DNA of 41,938 nucleotides from Candidatus Gottesmanbacteria bacterium RIFCSPHIGHO2_02_FULL_39_14 (GTDB lineage Bacteria > Patescibacteriota > Microgenomatia > 2-02-FULL-39-11), in the NCBI GenBank assembly GCA_001779205.1, contig MFJM01000006.1, positions 10,327 through 52,264 of the forward strand. The letters are read 5' to 3'. The position numbers and the translations under genes were made by a program. Below are positions 4,514 to 41,938 of this stretch, piece after piece. The notes beneath the pieces were generated by a model. It was given only the letters and a program-made list of their open reading frames with translations, ran no database searches and was not told where the DNA came from. The first letter of the stretch is position 1. Each line of letters opens with the position of its first letter.

Positions 4514-4840
4514 TTAGGGTCCCGGGATGGTGAAGATGGTAAGGGGCACACCAGTATAGAATTCAATTAACCTAAAAATGAGTACGGCCACAGCCATGAG
4601 AGCAATACCCATAACAGCATAGGTCATGGTTTGTTTGGCACTGGTTGCCGCCTTGGGATCACCTCCGGCTGTCAGGTAACGAAAACCGCCAACAACAAGC
4701 ATGACAAAAAGAGCAAGGAGACCGAGACTGATGATAACTGTCAAAATTTGTCTATAAATTCCTTCCAGACATTTGAAGGTAGGAACATCTACATCGCCGA
4801 TGGTTCTGATGCATTCAACTCCAGCCCATTCTTTATACAT
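4514..4840 (-). CDS. VirB2/TrbC-like pilin
   Basis: GGFRYLTAGGDPK...AKQTMTYAVMG between two hydrophobic helices. Confidence 0.8.
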   Translation of the reverse strand: MYKEWAGVECIRTIGDVDVPTFKCLEGIYRQILTVIISLGLLALFVMLVVGGFRYLTAGGDPKAATSAKQTMTYAVMGIALMAVAVLIFRLIEFYTGVPLTIFTIPGP

Positions 4841-5650: not shown

Positions 5651-5744
5651 TGTGCCAGGGGAGAGGATCCCGAAGATCACTTCCCGTTCGCGAGGTCTAC
5701 GTCCTCGCCTCACGGTGTCGTGTCTACGGGGCAGGTCGAACTCT
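5651..5744 (-). repeat. Duplicated tRNA 3' part (T-arm plus acceptor strand) interrupted by a 66-nt hairpin insert
   Basis: tgtgccaggggagaggatc at 5651-5669 equals 5744-5762. tcgaactct occurs at 5736-5744. The insert at 5670-5735 folds back on itself. Confidence 0.85.
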
Positions 5745-5745
5745 G

Positions 5746-5817
5746 TGCCAGGGGAGAGGATCGAACTCTCGGCCGCCACGTTATGAATGTGGTGCTCTAC
5801 CACTGAGCTACCCTGGC
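5746..5817 (-). tRNA. tRNA with CAT anticodon (elongator Met more likely than Ile2); CCA not encoded
   Basis: GCCAGGG/CCCTGGC acceptor stem, TAGCTCAGTGGTAGAGC D-arm, TTCATAA loop, GAGAG-TTCGATC-CTCTC T-arm. Confidence 0.92.
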
Positions 5818-6253: not shown

Positions 6254-6326
6254 CGCGGAGTAGTGTACAGTTGCACAGGAGGCTCATAATCTCCTAGGCT
6301 AGGTGCGACTCCTAGCTCCGCAACCA
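6254..6326 (+). tRNA. Initiator-type tRNA-fMet (CAT), atypical
   Basis: CGCGGAG/CTCCGCA acceptor with C1:A72 mismatch, CTCATAA loop and encoded ACCA end. Confidence 0.88.
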
Positions 6327-6334
6327 GGGTATTA

Positions 6335-6372
6335 AAGAAAAAAAGCTCCTCACTCGAGGAGCTTTTTTTCTT
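6335..6372. terminator. Bidirectional intrinsic terminator after tRNA-fMet
   Basis: aagaaaaaaagctcctc-actc-gaggagctttttttctt is a perfect inverted repeat. Confidence 0.85.
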
Positions 6373-6452
6373 CCACCCTGGCCAGGCTGATATGAAGCAC
6401 GCAAGTGCTGAATATAATAGCCTGGCATCACCTTTTGGGATATCATGGTAGT

Positions 6453-6728
6453 ATGTTCCACTATCTTTATATTCTCCAAAGTATTAAAGACAAGAAATTT
6501 TATACCGGAATTACCATTGATTTAAAACAAAGGTTAAAGGAGCATAATTCCGGTGAGAATACCTCGACATCTTATCGTCGACCATTCAAACTAATTTATT
6601 ATGAAGCCTATCTTCTCAAAAAAGACGCAGAAGCACGAGAATGGTATTTGAAGACGAGTATGGGAAAAAGAGTAATGAAGAAACAATTAAGGTATTACTT
6701 AGAATCAATTACGACAATTAAGATATGA
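6453..6728 (+). CDS. Small GIY-YIG nuclease
   Basis: YLYILQS..DKKFYTGIT.DLKQRLKEHNSG...T..RRPFKLIYYEAY....A.ARE..LK. ATG 6453 preferred as start. Confidence 0.9.
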   Translation: MFHYLYILQSIKDKKFYTGITIDLKQRLKEHNSGENTSTSYRRPFKLIYYEAYLLKKDAEAREWYLKTSMGKRVMKKQLRYYLESITTIKI

Positions 6729-7228
6729 GAATTAGAAAAGGTTAACTAAATGATATACAAAAGCTTGTATTTTTAGACCGTGCTGCTTACGGTGAGTATG
6801 GTGCAAACGAAGAATACTTTAAACAAAAGTTAACGTCTCCCAATACTCACGTATTAATTATTGAAAAAAGGAGTAAAGTTTCCGGTTTTACTGTTTTTTA
6901 ATTTATGGAACCACATCAAACACCAGAAAATTTCTCTGATTTACAATTAATGAAACCGATGAAAGGAAAATGGATGCATATCATTGCTTTTACAACAGAG
7001 ACTAATTATAAAGACATCCACGCAGATACCCGGCTTCTAAAAGCTGCTGAGAATTTAGCAAGAGAATTGAGATCTACTGTTTTTTGTGTTCCCTTAAGTA
7101 AAAATCATCCATATCCGGCTGCTTTTAATTTTTTTGAAGGAAATGGATATCAAAAAGTAGGTACAATTCAATGGTTGGCAAACTCTAACGAAAAAATTGA
7201 TTGCTACTTTTATAGCAAATCAGTATAG
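6725..7228 (+). pseudogene. GNAT-like acetyltransferase with two in-frame TAA stops
   Basis: ATG 6725 overlaps the GIY-YIG TGA and reads MRIRKG*LNDIQKLVFLD...VSGFTVF*FMEPH...AFNFFEGNGYQKVG in one frame. Stops are at 6743-6745 and 6899-6901. Confidence 0.7.
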
Positions 7229-7235
7229 AAAACAG

Positions 7236-7263
7236 GTTCTTATTTCTTCTAAGCCCCGCAACA
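7236..7263 (+). repeat. tRNA-3'-end-like repeat R1
   Basis: gttcttatttcttctaagccccgcaaca is 27/28 identical to 9962-9989. Its end resembles the tRNA-fMet end tagctccgcaac. Confidence 0.85.
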
Positions 7264-7269
7264 AAAATA

Positions 7270-7297
7270 AAAATAGCGTCTTACAAGGCGCTATTTT
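7270..7297. terminator. Hairpin terminator, near-identical to the one at 9054
   Basis: aaaatagcgtcttacaaggcgctatttt. Confidence 0.75.
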
Positions 7298-7336
7298 GGT
7301 AATTATAATCAAAAATTGATATACTTATATCATTAA

Positions 7337-8989
7337 ATGGAAGAAGGTTTTAAGCCGAACGATCAGAGTTATTTACTTCTTCAGGTAAATGACCTCGTAC
7401 CACTTCTGTCCGGATATGAGCAAAATACGATAGAAGTATTGCTCCAAAAAGCCAATTCGTGGCTTGCTTTGGATTCGCATAACTGGCGTAGTCCTGGTGA
7501 AAGGCGTCTGACTTCCCAATTTATGACACAACATTTTGCACAACGTTACCCACCGTAGGATGGGGTAGCCAAACAGAAATTGATAGATAAGTTATCATCG
7601 CCTTCGAGTCTGGATGAATTATTCTGGGAAGGGATTGACATTGATGCTGCGAATAATGCCGTTGATGAATTTAATGCACAGTTACCAAAAACCAAAAAGA
7701 AGTCAGGTCCGATAGAATTTGAGGAATTGGAAATACCTGCTTTTGTTCCAGAGAAAGCAGATACAGTAACATTTTATATCCATGCCTTACCCATTCACCC
7801 CGATCTGATTGAAGCTGAATATTATGCGCCTGAATTCCCCAAAAATCTAATTAACAAAAACGTCTTATTCTACTTACTGTTCCATTCAAAAGATATTTTG
7901 GATCAGCTACCCAATTTGAAGATGGTTACAGACTATTTTTGGTCTCGTTTTCCCGGATATATTGCTTATCAAGGCGAGATTGACAGAAATATTCCGGCAA
8001 GCATCAAGGGAGAGCAAATAAGATCAGAATACCGACGTATCCGCACCGATACATCTGAAATTTATAACCGTTTGGGCAAAATAGATGGCTTAATTTTGCA
8101 AGACAGAACTGATGATGGAGTTCGCGAGATGGTTATGCGTCTATCAGCTTCGGCAGAAGAAGGTGAAGAGTGGTTAAGGATTGCGGGAACCACTTTATTT
8201 AGTCTTGTGCTCAATTCTTCTGAAATCGATAGGTTTTTTAAAGATCCCGAAGTTAAGAATCGGGAATATCTAGCTTGGAAGAAGATTTCTTCCGATCAAC
8301 TGAAAGTGATCGTTGCAACCAATCGGTTATTGCGGACGATTGATGCTAAAAATCCTAGTGATATGCTCACACCGGAGGAATTGAAGTCTCTGACTGATTT
8401 CATCCCCTATATCGGCTATTTGTTCGATGAAAGTGATGAACGGGAAATAATGGAGGCAACGGGTTTGCTGACGAACCTTTTTACCGGCCAGAATATTGAC
8501 AAGCGGTCGGAAATTGCAGCAATACTCTTCCAAAAATTGACGGCAGCAAGAAATAAATACTGTCAACAAGGGAGGCTTCGCAGCCAAATTCCTGGTGCTG
8601 AAAACGAAGTTGTTCCCTTATCTCCCGAAGATGTTCTTTATCAGAAAATACTTAATTTGATAAAACAATATCCTCAGAAAATCGGCTTACTCAAAAGTGC
8701 TGATTATGACTTATGGAGAATTGGCAATACCGTTGAGTTTATAAATGAAATATTGGTAATCGAGCTGCCCGGATCCTCTCCAGGGCTAAAACCGGTCATT
8801 GATCGTATGGCAGCCTTATCTAAGGAAGAACTGTCGAAATTCAAGCCTAAGGAATATGTTGAAGACCCGGAGATCGTCCAATTGGAAATCGCCTTTTCAA
8901 ATCCTCCAGGTTCCATTTCGAATTTTATTGGATCAATCCCGACATCTCAAGCTTGGGCGGTTTTTGCCGAAGCAAATAAGGAAAAGTAA
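7337..8989 (+). pseudogene. ~550-aa hypothetical protein split by one in-frame TAG
   Basis: ORFs 7337-7558 and 7580-8989 share a frame. Only TAG 7556-7558 interrupts it (RYPP*DGVAKQKLIDKL). Confidence 0.65.
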
Positions 8990-9021
8990 TCCACAGATAA
9001 CGCCCATTCTGGATAAAATAC

Positions 9022-9049
9022 GTTCTAATTTATTCCAATCCCCTGAACA
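9022..9049 (+). repeat. tRNA-3'-end-like repeat R2 (degenerate)
   Basis: gttctaatttattccaatcccctgaaca matches R1 at 22/28 and is followed by the same hairpin. Confidence 0.75.
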
Positions 9050-9053
9050 AGAT

Positions 9054-9082
9054 AAATAGCGTCTTCCAAGGCGCTATTTTTT
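9054..9082. terminator. Bidirectional hairpin terminator between convergent genes
   Basis: aaatagcgtcttccaaggcgctatttttt. Confidence 0.75.
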
Positions 9083-9101
9083 ATCATTTTGGGGGAGATA
9101 T

Positions 9102-9824
9102 TTATGGGGTGCCAGTTAAAGAACCTGGTGGTAACTCCATATTATTTCGTCTTTTAGTAATTACTGGAATTTCTAGAATACTTTTTACTACTTTTTCTGC
9201 AATTTCTCTTTGATTATTGAAAGAGGGAGTAAAAGCTATTTCCACCTTGTGGTCTGTACCATCTTCCATCACTATACCTTCGGGAAGTTGCCCTTCCTGT
9301 TGTGCAAAACCACCTTTAAGATTTATATGTTGCATATTGATTTGCATCATAACGCTTCCTGCTCTCTCGACATCTCGTTGTAGCCCAGCTAAATCATTTT
9401 TTTGTTTTTCCGACATTCCCTTTGGGTTAAATGATATGTGTGGGATTTCAACAATTGGACACATCAGAAGCGGACTTATTATTCTTAATTGCTCGAGCGG
9501 CAATCTTAAACCTGATGAGTCATCAAATGCTCCCAACCGAGATGTGAGAATATTAACAATATCTTGGTAAATAACTCCCGATTCCTCTCCGGTTAATTTT
9601 CCTCCGATTCGTAATCCTGCTATATAGTGAGGACCATCTATTTCTCTTCCAGCTTCATCACGCAATAATTGAGCTGAGAACTTTTATTGAGTTATGTCAA
9701 AAGCCTTTCGAAATTCAGATGAAACTCTTCTATATTCACGAAACGCTCGAATTCTATCCACAAACTTTATTTTTTCATTACCGAGTACGTGAGATTCATC
9801 TTCCTGTAAATCAGTATGAGCCAT
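9102..9824 (-). pseudogene. ~240-aa hypothetical protein with one in-frame TAA
   Basis: ATG 9824 (MAHTDLQEDE...) is in frame with ORF 9102-9665, with TAA at 9686-9684. TTGACA-N17-TAACAT lies upstream of 9824. Confidence 0.65.
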
Positions 9825-9961
9825 TCTTTATTCATGTTAGATTAGATAGATTAGAGTGTCAATTATAGTTTGTCAACAAAATTATATACAAAAATATTAT
9901 CTTGATTTCTCTGCAGGCACGGTAAATAAAAATTCAAGTATAAGTCAGATTTGTAAACCAC

Positions 9962-9989
9962 GTTCTGATTTCTTCTAAGCCCCGCAACA
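9962..9989 (+). repeat. tRNA-3'-end-like repeat R3
   Basis: gttctgatttcttctaagccccgcaaca. Confidence 0.85.
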
Positions 9990-10020
9990 CTTCGACTCAC
10001 TCCGCTCGCTCAGTGCAAGC
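9988..10020. repeat. REP-like palindromic element upstream of a GIY-YIG gene
   Basis: cacttcgactcactccgctcgctcagtgcaagc, with partial complements gcggagtg (~10035) and gtcgaag (~10073) downstream. Confidence 0.5.
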
Positions 10021-10126
10021 ACATTAATTGAGAAGCGGAGTGTGTTTGGTTTATAAGGATAAAAAAATAAGGGTCGAAGCGTACTGAACAAATGTAGCGG
10101 GTTGAAGCACTATATAATTAGAGATT

Positions 10127-10372
10127 ATGTGGTTTGTCTATATACTGCTGTGCAAGGATAGGAGCTTATATACGGGTGTTTCCAACAATCCACAAAAACG
10201 ATTTTCAGATCATCAAACCGGTAAAGGCAGTAAGTATACAAGATCATTTAAAGCAAAAAGTATTGTCCATCTTGAAAAGTACATGACCAAATCAGAAGCG
10301 CTAAAAAGAGAAAGACTGATAAAAAGTTGGAGCCGAGAAAAGAAAATCAGAATATTAAATCTAAAAATCTGA
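10127..10372 (+). CDS. Small GIY-YIG nuclease (UPF0213/YhbQ-like)
   Basis: WFVYILLCKDRSLYTGVSNNPQKRF.DH..GKGSKYTR...ALKRE..IK.WSREKK. Confidence 0.9.
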   Translation: MWFVYILLCKDRSLYTGVSNNPQKRFSDHQTGKGSKYTRSFKAKSIVHLEKYMTKSEALKRERLIKSWSREKKIRILNLKI

Positions 10373-12378: not shown

Positions 12379-13164
12379 TTGAAAATAATTCCATTAGGCA
12401 GCAACGGCTTTTTTCCCAGTTATAACAGGCAGACAGCATGCTACGCAATTCATTACAAGAGTATTTTAATTGTTCTAGATGCAGGAAGCGGACTTTTCCG
12501 ATTTGCCGAAAAAGAAGGAAAAGTTTTGTTACGAGGAGTTGATGAAATTCATATTTTTTTATCGCATTATCATTTGGATCATACCTTCGGATTTTATGCA
12601 GCCTTTGAACTCTTTGAGAAAAAAAGGGTAACAGTATTTGCCAAAGCAGGCAGACAAGTTTTTTCGGAATTTGTCGCGATGGAACATTTTCCGATTGATT
12701 ATGAGAAGAAGCATAAAAATTTCAGTTGGAAAACTGTAACTGAAGAAACATACCGTTTAGAAGGTTATAAAGCAAAAGTCCGTAAGCAGAATCATCGGGG
12801 TGAAGTAAGCTTAGGATTCAGAATGGAATTCTCAAATGGTAAAAGTATGACTTATATTACAGACGGAGAACCGACTTGGGAGAGCGTAGAATTTGTCAGG
12901 GGAGTTGATTTATTACTGCATGAGCATGAACCATCTGATGAAAAGGAGGCAAAACATCTCAAATTGGAAGATCAGATTTCCGACGGACATGTGACGACCG
13001 AAGGGGCTGGTTTGATTGCCAGAGAAGCCGGAGTGAAGAAACTGGCGTTGGTTCATCACAATCCATTTCTTAATGAGGCGAGCTTAATAAAAGAATTAAA
13101 AAAAGCAAAAGCGATTTTTAAAGAAAGTTATTTAGCGATGGATATGGAAGAGGTTGAGTTTTAG
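12379..13164 (+). CDS. Metallo-beta-lactamase-fold hydrolase, RNase Z/BN-like
   Basis: LGSNG, DAGSG, SHYHLDH, TD, HE, GH and LVHH motifs. Confidence 0.85.
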   Translation: MKIIPLGSNGFFPSYNRQTACYAIHYKSILIVLDAGSGLFRFAEKEGKVLLRGVDEIHIFLSHYHLDHTFGFYAAFELFEKKRVTVFAKAGRQVFSEFVAMEHFPIDYEKKHKNFSWKTVTEETYRLEGYKAKVRKQNHRGEVSLGFRMEFSNGKSMTYITDGEPTWESVEFVRGVDLLLHEHEPSDEKEAKHLKLEDQISDGHVTTEGAGLIAREAGVKKLALVHHNPFLNEASLIKELKKAKAIFKESYLAMDMEEVEF

Positions 13165-41543: not shown

Positions 41544-41938
41544 TGTCATCCTGAACGAAGTCAAGCTTAGCTTGATGAAGTGAAGGATCTCTGAACTTGT
41601 TTCAGATTTCATTTGATAGATTATTAAAATCAGGATTAATGGTTTTAATTAAAGCTATCTTTTTCTTTCTGGTCCAACCTTTGATTTTCTTTTCAAAAAC
41701 TATCGCTTCTTCTATATTTCTAAATTCAGTTAAATAGATTAATTTATTAAGATTATATTTTGAAGTAAAACCGGGAATTGATTTTAAACTATGCTCATTT
41801 ATTCTTCTTACTATATTATTGGTTACTCCTATATAAAGTTTATTGGATTTATTAGTCAGAATATAAACATAATAAGTCATTAATTAAAGTATCTCACATT
41901 CGTGAGAGATTCTTCCCCCGCTAAGCGGGGTCAGAATG
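41544..41938. mobile_element. Same palindromic element carrying a GIY-YIG gene between its arms
   Basis: Left arm at 41544-41591; right arm at 41906-41938, cut by the window end. Confidence 0.65.
41602..41880 (-). CDS. Small GIY-YIG nuclease
   Basis: YYVYILTN....LYIGVTNNI.RR..EH....GFT.KYN..KL.Y...AI..EK.IKGW.R.KK..LI...NP. Confidence 0.93.
   Translation of the reverse strand: MTYYVYILTNKSNKLYIGVTNNIVRRINEHSLKSIPGFTSKYNLNKLIYLTEFRNIEEAIVFEKKIKGWTRKKKIALIKTINPDFNNLSNEI

Follow-up and report, generated by a model that had tools for sequence, protein, structure and literature searches.

Introduction

Small gene cassettes that follow one another at one fixed chromosomal locus are known best from integrons. 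Here we describe a locus of comparable layout in a 41,938-nt stretch of DNA, hereafter the window, from Candidatus Gottesmanbacteria bacterium RIFCSPHIGHO2_02_FULL_39_14 (contig MFJM01000006.1, positions 10,327 to 52,264 of the forward strand; G000:C6:10327-52264 in our numbering). Between the initiator tRNA gene, tRNA-fMet, and a small GIY-YIG nuclease gene, GIY2, this window holds short cassettes whose ends are marked by copies of a 36-nt site that we call R. We lean towards regarding positions 6327-9988 as a hypervariable array of small cassettes between tRNA-fMet and its ancestral neighbour GIY2, which would be exchanged via R by an enzyme acting in trans.

According to the accessible part of one survey, clusters of attC sites also occur without an integrase (CALIN), and integrons have toxin-antitoxin content (PMC4889954). 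Like integrons and CALIN, the R array has ordered cassettes of one or two genes at a single chromosomal locus and one conserved site per cassette boundary (one to five sites per array here), its content is dominated by orphan and toxin-antitoxin genes, and its cassettes carry no recombinase of their own. A tyrosine recombinase gene lies near the array in integrons and, here, in most relatives. The parts are different, though. Integrons require IntI, while the R locus has no IntI (63-71 bits against a cut-off of 265); attC sites are imperfect inverted repeats (R''-L''...L'-R') which fold as hairpins, while R is not attC-like and does not fold back; integron cassette genes are co-oriented and mostly promoterless, while genes of R cassettes lie on either strand (40 same, 45 opposite); and the array is anchored not on attI but on a tRNA gene's 3' end. 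The R array thus works like a sedentary integron or CALIN but departs from it in three of four defining features, namely IntI, the attC fold and gene orientation. No array of this kind was described in the full-text literature that we searched, in which coverage of subscription journals is poor; the layout seems to recall integrons while using different parts, and seems to be undescribed.

Tycheposons of Prochlorococcus are defined by an element-borne integrase and replication genes, as far as the available part of their description goes (10.1101/2020.12.28.424599). Judging by the same part, their islands share with the R array the tRNA anchor, direct repeats of partial tRNA sequence between units, newer units that push older ones outward, and defence or adaptive cargo. 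They differ in that R units are only about 0.9 kb long and none of 85 cassette open reading frames (ORFs) encodes a recombinase, and in that R is a distinct 36-nt consensus conserved across families instead of a plain copy of a tRNA end.

Two further systems come into question. Integrative mobile elements exploiting Xer (IMEX) at dif, and the pdif modules of Acinetobacter plasmids, are small integrase-less modules, often with toxin-antitoxin genes, that are flanked by short sites and moved by the host Xer recombinases. In most relatives an Xer-like gene is adjacent to the R locus. Their sites, however, have near-palindromic 11-6-11 arms as in dif (4-6/11 matches in R); IMEX integrate at dif at the terminus, where the R locus does not lie, and pdif sites alternate in inverted orientation, unlike the direct R sites. 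Free-standing GIY-YIG homing endonuclease genes also occur in tRNA clusters, such as segB of phage T4, and GIY1 and GIY2 of the window, with their leaders, similarly start exactly at tRNA-type 3' ends. Such genes would account for only two of the five window genes, R cassettes mostly have no GIY-YIG gene (3/85 with one), and the homing endonucleases have a separate DNA-binding domain, which the GIY proteins of the window do not.

Genomes, loci and searches

The source assembly, G000, comprises 1.44 Mb in 72 contigs with 38% GC and is 85.5% complete; genomes of its relatives measure 0.7-1.8 Mb. The comparison included a DNA search of 40 relatives, from which 18 loci were fetched, a family sample of 21 genomes (the order in this collection holds the same 21) and a class sample of 151 genomes. 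R was accepted at E<=0.01 in the family and at E<=1e-4 in the class. The sequence model of R was built from an alignment of 22 copies (A1), and as it covers exactly the conserved positions, only non-conservation outside R is informative. A metagenome scan yielded 91 stretches, reduced to 59 non-redundant loci with 103 R matches; several of these loci come from the same organisms as genome loci. Genomes are denoted by G, contigs by C, extracted loci by L, families by f, runs by X and proteins by P.

Results

R resembles the 3' part of the initiator tRNA

The tRNA-fMet gene anchoring the array (6254..6326, + strand) was found by ARAGORN and scores 41.5 bits on the Rfam tRNA model (cut-off 29), a value reached under permissive filters, as Rfam missed the gene at default ones. 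It carries the C1:A72 initiator mismatch and is the only tRNA-fMet that ARAGORN finds in the assembly. Its unusual T loop, GGTGCGAYTCC, is common to all 18 relatives' loci, and we therefore take it to be the real initiator tRNA of the lineage.

On the same strand follow R1 (7227..7262, core repeat 7236-7262), which ends CCCCGCAAC, the degenerate copy R2 (9013..9048, core 9022-9048; 25.9 bits with nhmmer), ending CCCCTGAAC, and the last site, R3 (9953..9988, core 9962-9988). A first-pass annotation of this DNA, made from the letters alone, had proposed three repeats at these places, and they are real: R1 and R3 differ at one of 27 positions, R2 is 79% identical over 29 nt, and the 27-nt pattern has two matches in the window as opposed to none in 100 shuffles (0 expected). 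Only the proposed length of 28 nt does not hold, as the conserved unit spans 36 nt. The likeness it had seen between the ends of R1 and R3, agccccgcaac, and the end of tRNA-fMet, gctccgcaacca, was borne out; the tRNA 3' end ...GCTCCGCAACCA shares CCGCAAC with R.

Over 95 anchored units the conserved 36-nt block reads A.AAA.TAGGTTCTGATTTCTTCCAATCCCCGCAAC, and conservation drops off immediately 3' of CAAC. The last nine bases of R correspond to the acceptor 3' strand, the discriminator and the first C of tRNA-fMet, the right end CCCCGCAAC being the acceptor 3' strand plus discriminator, and the left part opens with a T-loop-like GGTTCTGA or GGTGCGGA. One variant, GGTGCGGATTTCTTTCAGTCCCCGCAAC, matches the last 24 nt of the tRNA-fMet of G128 at 22 positions when aligned by eye, with five inserted nucleotides. 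The T-loop-like start, the tRNA 3' end and this alignment together indicate that R derives from the tRNA, from T loop through 3' end, although R is now a consensus of its own and no plain copy of the resident tRNA end. No consensus structure was obtained for the R-hairpin unit (RNAalifold, 15 units), the CAAC end did not pair with any downstream GTT partner in DNA folds of 103 units, and no Rfam family matched R or the leaders described below.

Some copies of R are interrupted. The inserts are small and GC-rich or form hairpins; the one in G014 (L060:6170-6330) carries the CTCAGTGCAAGC motif of GIY-YIG leaders, and in G003 (L012:3383-3450 and 4578-4645) a 34-nt hairpin stands between CCGC and AAC. 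In five or six units (L104, L119, L086, L083, L058, L088) a motif ..TTTTAGCYTCA.. stands immediately 3' of the CAAC of R.

R is found at the tRNA-fMet locus in several families

No R was detected in the rest of the G000 assembly beyond the three copies (<=6 mismatches, or nhmmer E<1e-4), with one weak in-gene match on contig C21 at E=0.4. In G000 the repeat is therefore confined to the tRNA-fMet locus instead of being scattered over the genome. In the family, R occurs in 15 of 21 genomes, with one to five copies each, and was not found in G001, G005, G006, G009, G011 and G018. When a match of at least 25 bits is present, it lies on the contig bearing the tRNA-Met/tRNA-fMet pair in 12 of 13 genomes; the exception is G004, whose copies are on a 6-kb contig without a tRNA. 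R is in direct orientation to tRNA-fMet in the window, G020, G013, G012, G003, G016 and G128. The order in the last of these is tRNA-fMet, remnant of a GIY leader, gene, R, hairpin, gene, R, GIY leader with gene, R.

In the class, 17 of 151 genomes have R, including members of families f18, f28, f46 and f5. Of the 59 metagenome loci, 35 are informative, and 22 of these have tRNA-fMet upstream of R on the same strand, 417-1710 bp away. Two loci had another arrangement and 11 no recognisable tRNA-fMet (ARAGORN misses some intron-bearing copies), while 23 had too little upstream DNA and one had no model match. From these comparisons, R is specific to the tRNA-fMet locus across a class of small-genome bacteria of the candidate phyla radiation type. 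It was absent from viral contigs by the strict pattern (a looser one gave two in-ORF matches of 9.5 and 14 bits), and blastn found no match to R in 50,697 phage records.

Cassettes are replaced between relatives while R is kept

The relatives share a conserved backbone: (Xer-like recombinase)-DivIC-tRNA-Met-tRNA-fMet-[variable part]-GIY-YIG and/or an RNase Z-like protein of the metallo-beta-lactamase (MBL) fold. The variable part ranges from zero to more than 4 kb. In 'empty' sites (G005, G006, G032), tRNA-fMet is directly followed by the homologue of GIY2, in G005 together with the GIY2 leader, and in the window R3 is followed by just that sequence. The MBL gene follows the tRNA in G018, and only a hairpin does so in G011 and G009. 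We thus take GIY2 to be the ancestral neighbour of tRNA-fMet.

Between G020 and G013, which belong to one genus, the flanks are 72-75% identical, and between tRNA and GIY2 nothing but the R-hairpin units aligns (80-94%). A 1.3-kb array with three copies of R and HicAB and GNAT cassettes is present in G007 and missing from its congener G018, the flanks being 87-93% identical. Cassette proteins were mostly singletons among 21 loci. On this comparative evidence, cassette content is replaced between relatives while R is kept. The serial capture of cassettes at the tRNA 3' end, which the first-pass annotation had suggested, is supported by the empty sites, by this replacement and by the retention of R; gene order is not the same in relatives, and content varies with breakpoints at the tRNA end and at the repeats.

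The same downstream sequences stand behind either the tRNA end or R. The hairpin follows with 34 identical nt the tRNA of G011 and an R of G007, the GIY1 leader follows the tRNA in the window, G020, G017 and G010 and stands behind R as well in the second and third of these, and the GIY2 leader follows the tRNA in G005 and R3 in the window. Variant copies of R part ways after CCCCG, CCGC or CCAC. These interchangeable sequences and divergence points, together with the insert in G003, suggest that the junction lies at the right end of R.

One cassette, encoding a HATPase and a DUF4325 protein, occurs in both G020 and G014, which are of different genera, with 95.2% identity over 1437 bp and in the same orientation to R. 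As the DivIC proteins of these two genomes are only 40% identical, this two-gene cassette has moved between genera recently. The R downstream of it is identical at 31 of 35 positions.

Content of the cassettes

The 54 site-to-site intervals in the metagenome loci measure 312-4005 bp, with a median of about 880. They hold 85 ORFs, 40 on the strand of R and 45 on the opposite one, of which 31 have a Pfam match. The genes include five Fic, HepT/MNT, RelB/ParE, BrnT/CopG, DUF5615/DUF433, two NUDIX and three GIY-YIG. Cassettes are rich in toxin-antitoxin and orphan genes; in G004, PADLOC assigns a cassette reverse transcriptase to RT_VI. No recombinase, integrase or transposase is encoded by any of the 85 ORFs, no integrase or fragment of one was present in the cassettes of 18 family loci, and the window has no recombinase gene, which fits the earlier suggestion of mobilisation in trans.

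In the window, three of the five cassette genes bear recent nonsense mutations, and the array of G000 is thus decaying. A GNAT-like acetyltransferase pseudogene (6725..7228, +) has in-frame TAA codons at 6743-6745 and 6899-6901; an intact paralogue on contig C15 shares 60% identity with it over 166 aa, and in one contig of run X5 position 6899 is G (GAA). ORF2 (7337..8989, +), 550 codons, is interrupted by TAG at 7556-7558. It is an orphan, with no match in Pfam, NCBIfam, PADLOC or PHROGs, and only its own cluster was found among 5.8 billion proteins. ORF3 (9102..9824, -), 240 codons with TAA at 9684-9686, matched no known family; the stop codon corresponds to Gln in P0002, an intact protein with 99% identity, and P0003 is a 56%-identical relative. 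The GNAT gene and the ORFs of about 550 and 240 aa had been noted in the first-pass annotation, but they are not open (two TAA, one TAG and one TAA, respectively). Promoter-like hexamers upstream of ORF2 and ORF3 were no more numerous than in shuffles.

All four disruptions are nonsense codons (three TAA, one TAG), with no frameshift in about 2.9 kb, and at two of these positions an intact codon is present in other sequences (GAA in the X5 contig, Gln in P0002). Stop-codon reassignment was considered and ruled out: the stops are of two kinds, TAA and TAG, table 11 leaves the other genes of the window open, and intact alleles exist.

Hairpins, GIY-YIG genes and their leaders

Hairpin 1 (7272..7297, +), a bidirectional terminator-like stem-loop, and hairpin 2 (9054..9079, +), also terminator-like and serving both ORF2 (+) and ORF3 (-), differ at one of 26 positions, and so the near-identity of the hairpins behind R1 and R2 noticed at first is confirmed. 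A homologue of hairpin 1 stands directly behind tRNA-fMet in G011, G009, G003 and G016, and the stems covary between genomes.

Both GIY-YIG genes assigned in the first-pass annotation were recovered with Pfam PF01541. GIY1 (6453..6728, +; E=3.5e-17) is intact and encodes 91 aa with the catalytic domain only, GIY2 (10127..10372, +; E=6.6e-20) is intact and encodes 81 aa, and the domain spans residues 3-72 and 1-73, respectively. Pfam found in neither a separate DNA-binding domain for a long target. The supposed 'terminator' after the tRNA and the 'repetitive extragenic palindrome (REP)-like element' after R3 turned out to be structured leaders of these genes instead. Leader 1 (6327..6452, +; RNAalifold) starts directly at the tRNA end and consists of an outer stem around a terminator-like hairpin (6335-6372) with a second hairpin behind; an RNAalifold alignment of six copies contains 34 pairs, 14 of them with compensatory changes. 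Leader 2 (9989..10126, +) has nested stems around gctcgctcagtgcaagcac. Its bin is 97-895x deep in four metagenome runs, and this motif is therefore common in those communities. A third small GIY-YIG gene lies at 41602-41880 (-) of the window, G000 having six GIY-YIG matches in total.

An Xer-like recombinase is the candidate enzyme

A 300-aa Xer-like tyrosine recombinase gene adjoins DivIC in 10 of the 18 fetched loci (G012, G003, G007, G006, G011, G016, G009, G002, G018 and the class relative G032). It also stands beside DivIC in G014 and near R in G128, G037 and G143, and in 9 of 17 R-bearing class genomes it lies within 2.5 kb of R. The orthologue in G000 is at C26:39005-39904. The recombinases of G000, G012, G128, G037, G143 and G014 score 63-71 bits on the IntI model TIGR02249 (cut-off 265), and their best models, XerC, XerD or XerA, are also below cut-off. 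Because 149 of 151 class genomes have GIY-YIG genes, with or without R, the co-occurrence of these genes with R is uninformative. Presence/absence patterns link neither the Xer-like gene nor GIY-YIG to R.

No dedicated cassette integrase was found. Two more genes for Xer-type tyrosine recombinases, of 315 and 295 aa and with a 146-aa ORF between them, lie at G000:C72:28100-30430 (L050:3107-5426); they are accessory in the class, but most R-bearing genomes showed no equivalent. The idea that R is the chromosomal dif was dismissed. There is no GC-skew sign change in the window or in seven of eight relatives (G008 is near zero), and the distance between dnaA and the tRNA is 67-107 kb in G011, G022, G031 and G032. 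A crude search of G000 for canonical dif-like palindromes gave AT-rich noise only. A palindrome, GCTGATAAT...ATTATCAGC, was seen at C72:27024, and a similar one at C23:52997.

Discussion

How the cassettes may be exchanged

We read the locus, from sequence comparison, as tRNA-anchored, integron-like gene capture for which the mobilising enzyme is a candidate only. Cassettes would be inserted, excised or exchanged by recombination at or near the ...CCGC/AAC end common to R and the tRNA. Each cassette would bring its own R, and consequently older cassettes would come to lie farther from the tRNA as newer ones enter. The recombining enzyme would act in trans, its best candidate being the host Xer-like tyrosine recombinase, whose gene in most relatives is one or two genes removed from the tRNA pair. 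Copies of R are no more alike within than between arrays (7.79 as compared with 8.51 mismatches of 36, p=0.13 in 2000 permutations), which favours cassette-borne sites over duplication in place or gene conversion. We rank a trans-acting tyrosine recombinase first, and nuclease-stimulated exchange second, because the sites are directional, asymmetric, cassette-borne and conserved along with a vertically inherited neighbour. Going further, the locus could be an independent integron-like system in which the Xer-like recombinase uses the tRNA-derived R to store and swap promoter-bearing defence, toxin-antitoxin and orphan cassettes, with the tRNA end in the role of attI and R in that of attC. This is a tentative proposal, which we hold possible rather than probable.

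Several observations weigh against exchange through R by a host recombinase. In G007, G008, G017 and G002, copies of R are on the strand opposite to tRNA-fMet and on the 5' side of the tRNA, so that simple insertion at the tRNA 3' end would not suffice without an added inversion. Within some arrays the copies of R do share private variants (R1 and R3 of the window, L067, L103). The Xer-like gene is a single-copy core gene, present in 141 of 151 class genomes (a tally that includes the unpublished G086); because it also occurs in genomes without R, its adjacency may be plain synteny, and in G000, G008 and G013 it lies either a long way from the array or on a different contig. R itself is no dif-like palindrome: written as 11-6-11, its arms match by inspection at 4/11 positions (6/11 in the GGTGCGG variant). 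The block that G020 and G014 have in common leaves out about 42 nt behind the upstream CAAC and 20-45 nt ahead of the downstream R, and exchanged DNA thus does not run exactly from site to site. Finally, no excised circle or deletion joint of the window's strain was seen in assembled Logan contigs of four runs (90% likeness), which cannot show rare variants. The array is covered by contigs of this strain that show no joint. Two joints that do appear, 6324>10003 (in all four runs) and 6326>7271 (run X3), have other letters between the two sides and match the 'empty' or hairpin-only forms of relatives, so they do not indicate excision in the window's strain. Near-identical contig pairs (L078/L082 and L076/L098) diverge inside genes or on the 5' side of the tRNA and not at R; L093, L119 and L089 overlap one another and were split at the repeat during assembly.

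One could imagine that the nuclease genes themselves drive the turnover. A GIY-YIG enzyme would cut the ...CCGCAAC of tRNA or R, and repair through homology of R and hairpin would copy content in or lose it, with no site-specific recombinase. The GIY-YIG leaders start exactly after CAAC of the tRNA or R in the window, G020, G017, G010, G005 and G128, GIY2 is the ancestral neighbour of the tRNA, small hairpin inserts are found in or next to CCGC/AAC (G003) and inside R (G014), and the ends of the inter-genus block off the sites would also fit. Moreover, R, being long, asymmetric and conserved, resembles the targets of homing endonucleases. Yet proteins of 81-91 aa with a catalytic domain only have no evident way to read a 36-nt site, 149 of 151 class genomes have GIY-YIG genes as against 17 with R, and no GIY-YIG gene lies near the R arrays of G007, G008, G004 and G002. 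Homology repair should also homogenise R within arrays, which was not seen overall (p=0.13), and the non-homologous sequence beside the block shared by G020 and G014 offers no guide for crossovers. We consider this explanation unlikely.

Alternatively, phage- or tycheposon-like elements with their own integrases might have entered tRNA-fMet serially and eroded to one or two genes, leaving R as remnants of att sites. From the T-loop-like motif to the tRNA 3' end, R has the usual extent of tRNA att blocks, as the alignment of GGTGCGGATTTCTTTCAGTCCCCGCAAC illustrates, and the cassette genes of the window are decaying; in the available part of the Prochlorococcus study, islands show serial integration with scattered partial tRNAs (10.1101/2020.12.28.424599). 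What makes this origin rather improbable is that neither the 85 metagenome cassette ORFs nor the 18 family loci hold an integrase or a fragment of one, while the intervals are as short as 312-4005 bp (median about 880). Viral contigs and phage records gave nothing for R but two weak in-gene matches. Neutral debris would lose the middle of R, which is not tRNA-like and is conserved across families, and an intact two-gene cassette has recently moved between genera without an integrase. In a further reading DNA recombination plays no part at all: R and hairpin would act on the transcript, as a tRNA-like 3' end joined to a terminator and retained for its use in termination or in the processing of RNA, in a region that is a general hot spot of gene turnover. 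This reading has in its favour that within the family a terminator-like hairpin with covarying stem often stands behind R, that the conserved distal neighbour is RNase Z-like and that, by inspection, the left part of R has stop codons in two frames. We regard it as very improbable: R keeps one orientation per array while genes lie on either strand (40 same, 45 opposite), so it is not the 3' untranslated region of a gene; a strict terminator test was passed by 21 of 103 units, and sequences after R are heterogeneous; the 5' acceptor strand needed for tRNA-like processing is missing, there is neither an Rfam match nor a consensus structure, and the breakpoints at R would be left unexplained.

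What an exchange locus would mean for small genomes

Very small bacterial genomes are usually thought to be poor in ways to gain genes. Integrons were also reported to be lacking in them, in the part of the survey available to us (PMC4889954). If cassette exchange through R is true, a class-wide locus would be a main route of flexible-gene turnover in these small-genome bacteria, and it would be a second, mechanistically different solution to the problem solved by integrons. The cargo of many R cassettes is of toxin-antitoxin or anti-phage type, and at least one cassette moved between genera. The 36-nt R offers a simple handle for mining cassettes from metagenomes and for in vitro recombination tests.

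The tRNA pair and neighbouring genes

The divergent partner of tRNA-fMet, and a member of the conserved backbone (xer)-DivIC-tRNA-Met-tRNA-fMet, is an elongator-type tRNA-Met(CAT) at 5745..5817 (-), supported by ARAGORN, by 67.5 bits on the Rfam tRNA model and by synteny in relatives. An exact 19-nt copy of its minus-strand 3' end lies 93 bp downstream of it (window 5651-5669 and 5744-5762) and resembles a very small duplication of the att type. Family f18 has a 225-aa ORF between a 5' fragment of tRNA-Met and an intact tRNA-Met, into which the ORF extends (L053:7240-8071, equal to L043:1600-2430; L052:8082-8824, with the ORF start also at L044:2708-3035), and this unit may be another tRNA-invading element.

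The conserved gene beyond the variable region encodes the RNase Z-like MBL-fold protein, to which RNase Z models give about 100 bits, less than their cut-offs; it lies at 12379-13164 of the window, L010:7907-8695 and L025:3342-3974, and in eight further family loci. Genes of the type IV secretion system-pilin type are present, which, like the 0.7-1.8 Mb genomes of the relatives, is in keeping with a lineage of the CPR/Patescibacteria type. The anticodon loop of tRNA-fMet is split by an insert of 182-279 nt, probably a group I intron, in G013, G007, G008, G017, G011 and others, while the copy of the window is uninterrupted. Such split copies lie at L010:4617-4880, L013:3605-3886, L014:3866-4123, L017:4361-4631, L018:3388-3660 and L055:4294-4644, as well as in several metagenome loci.

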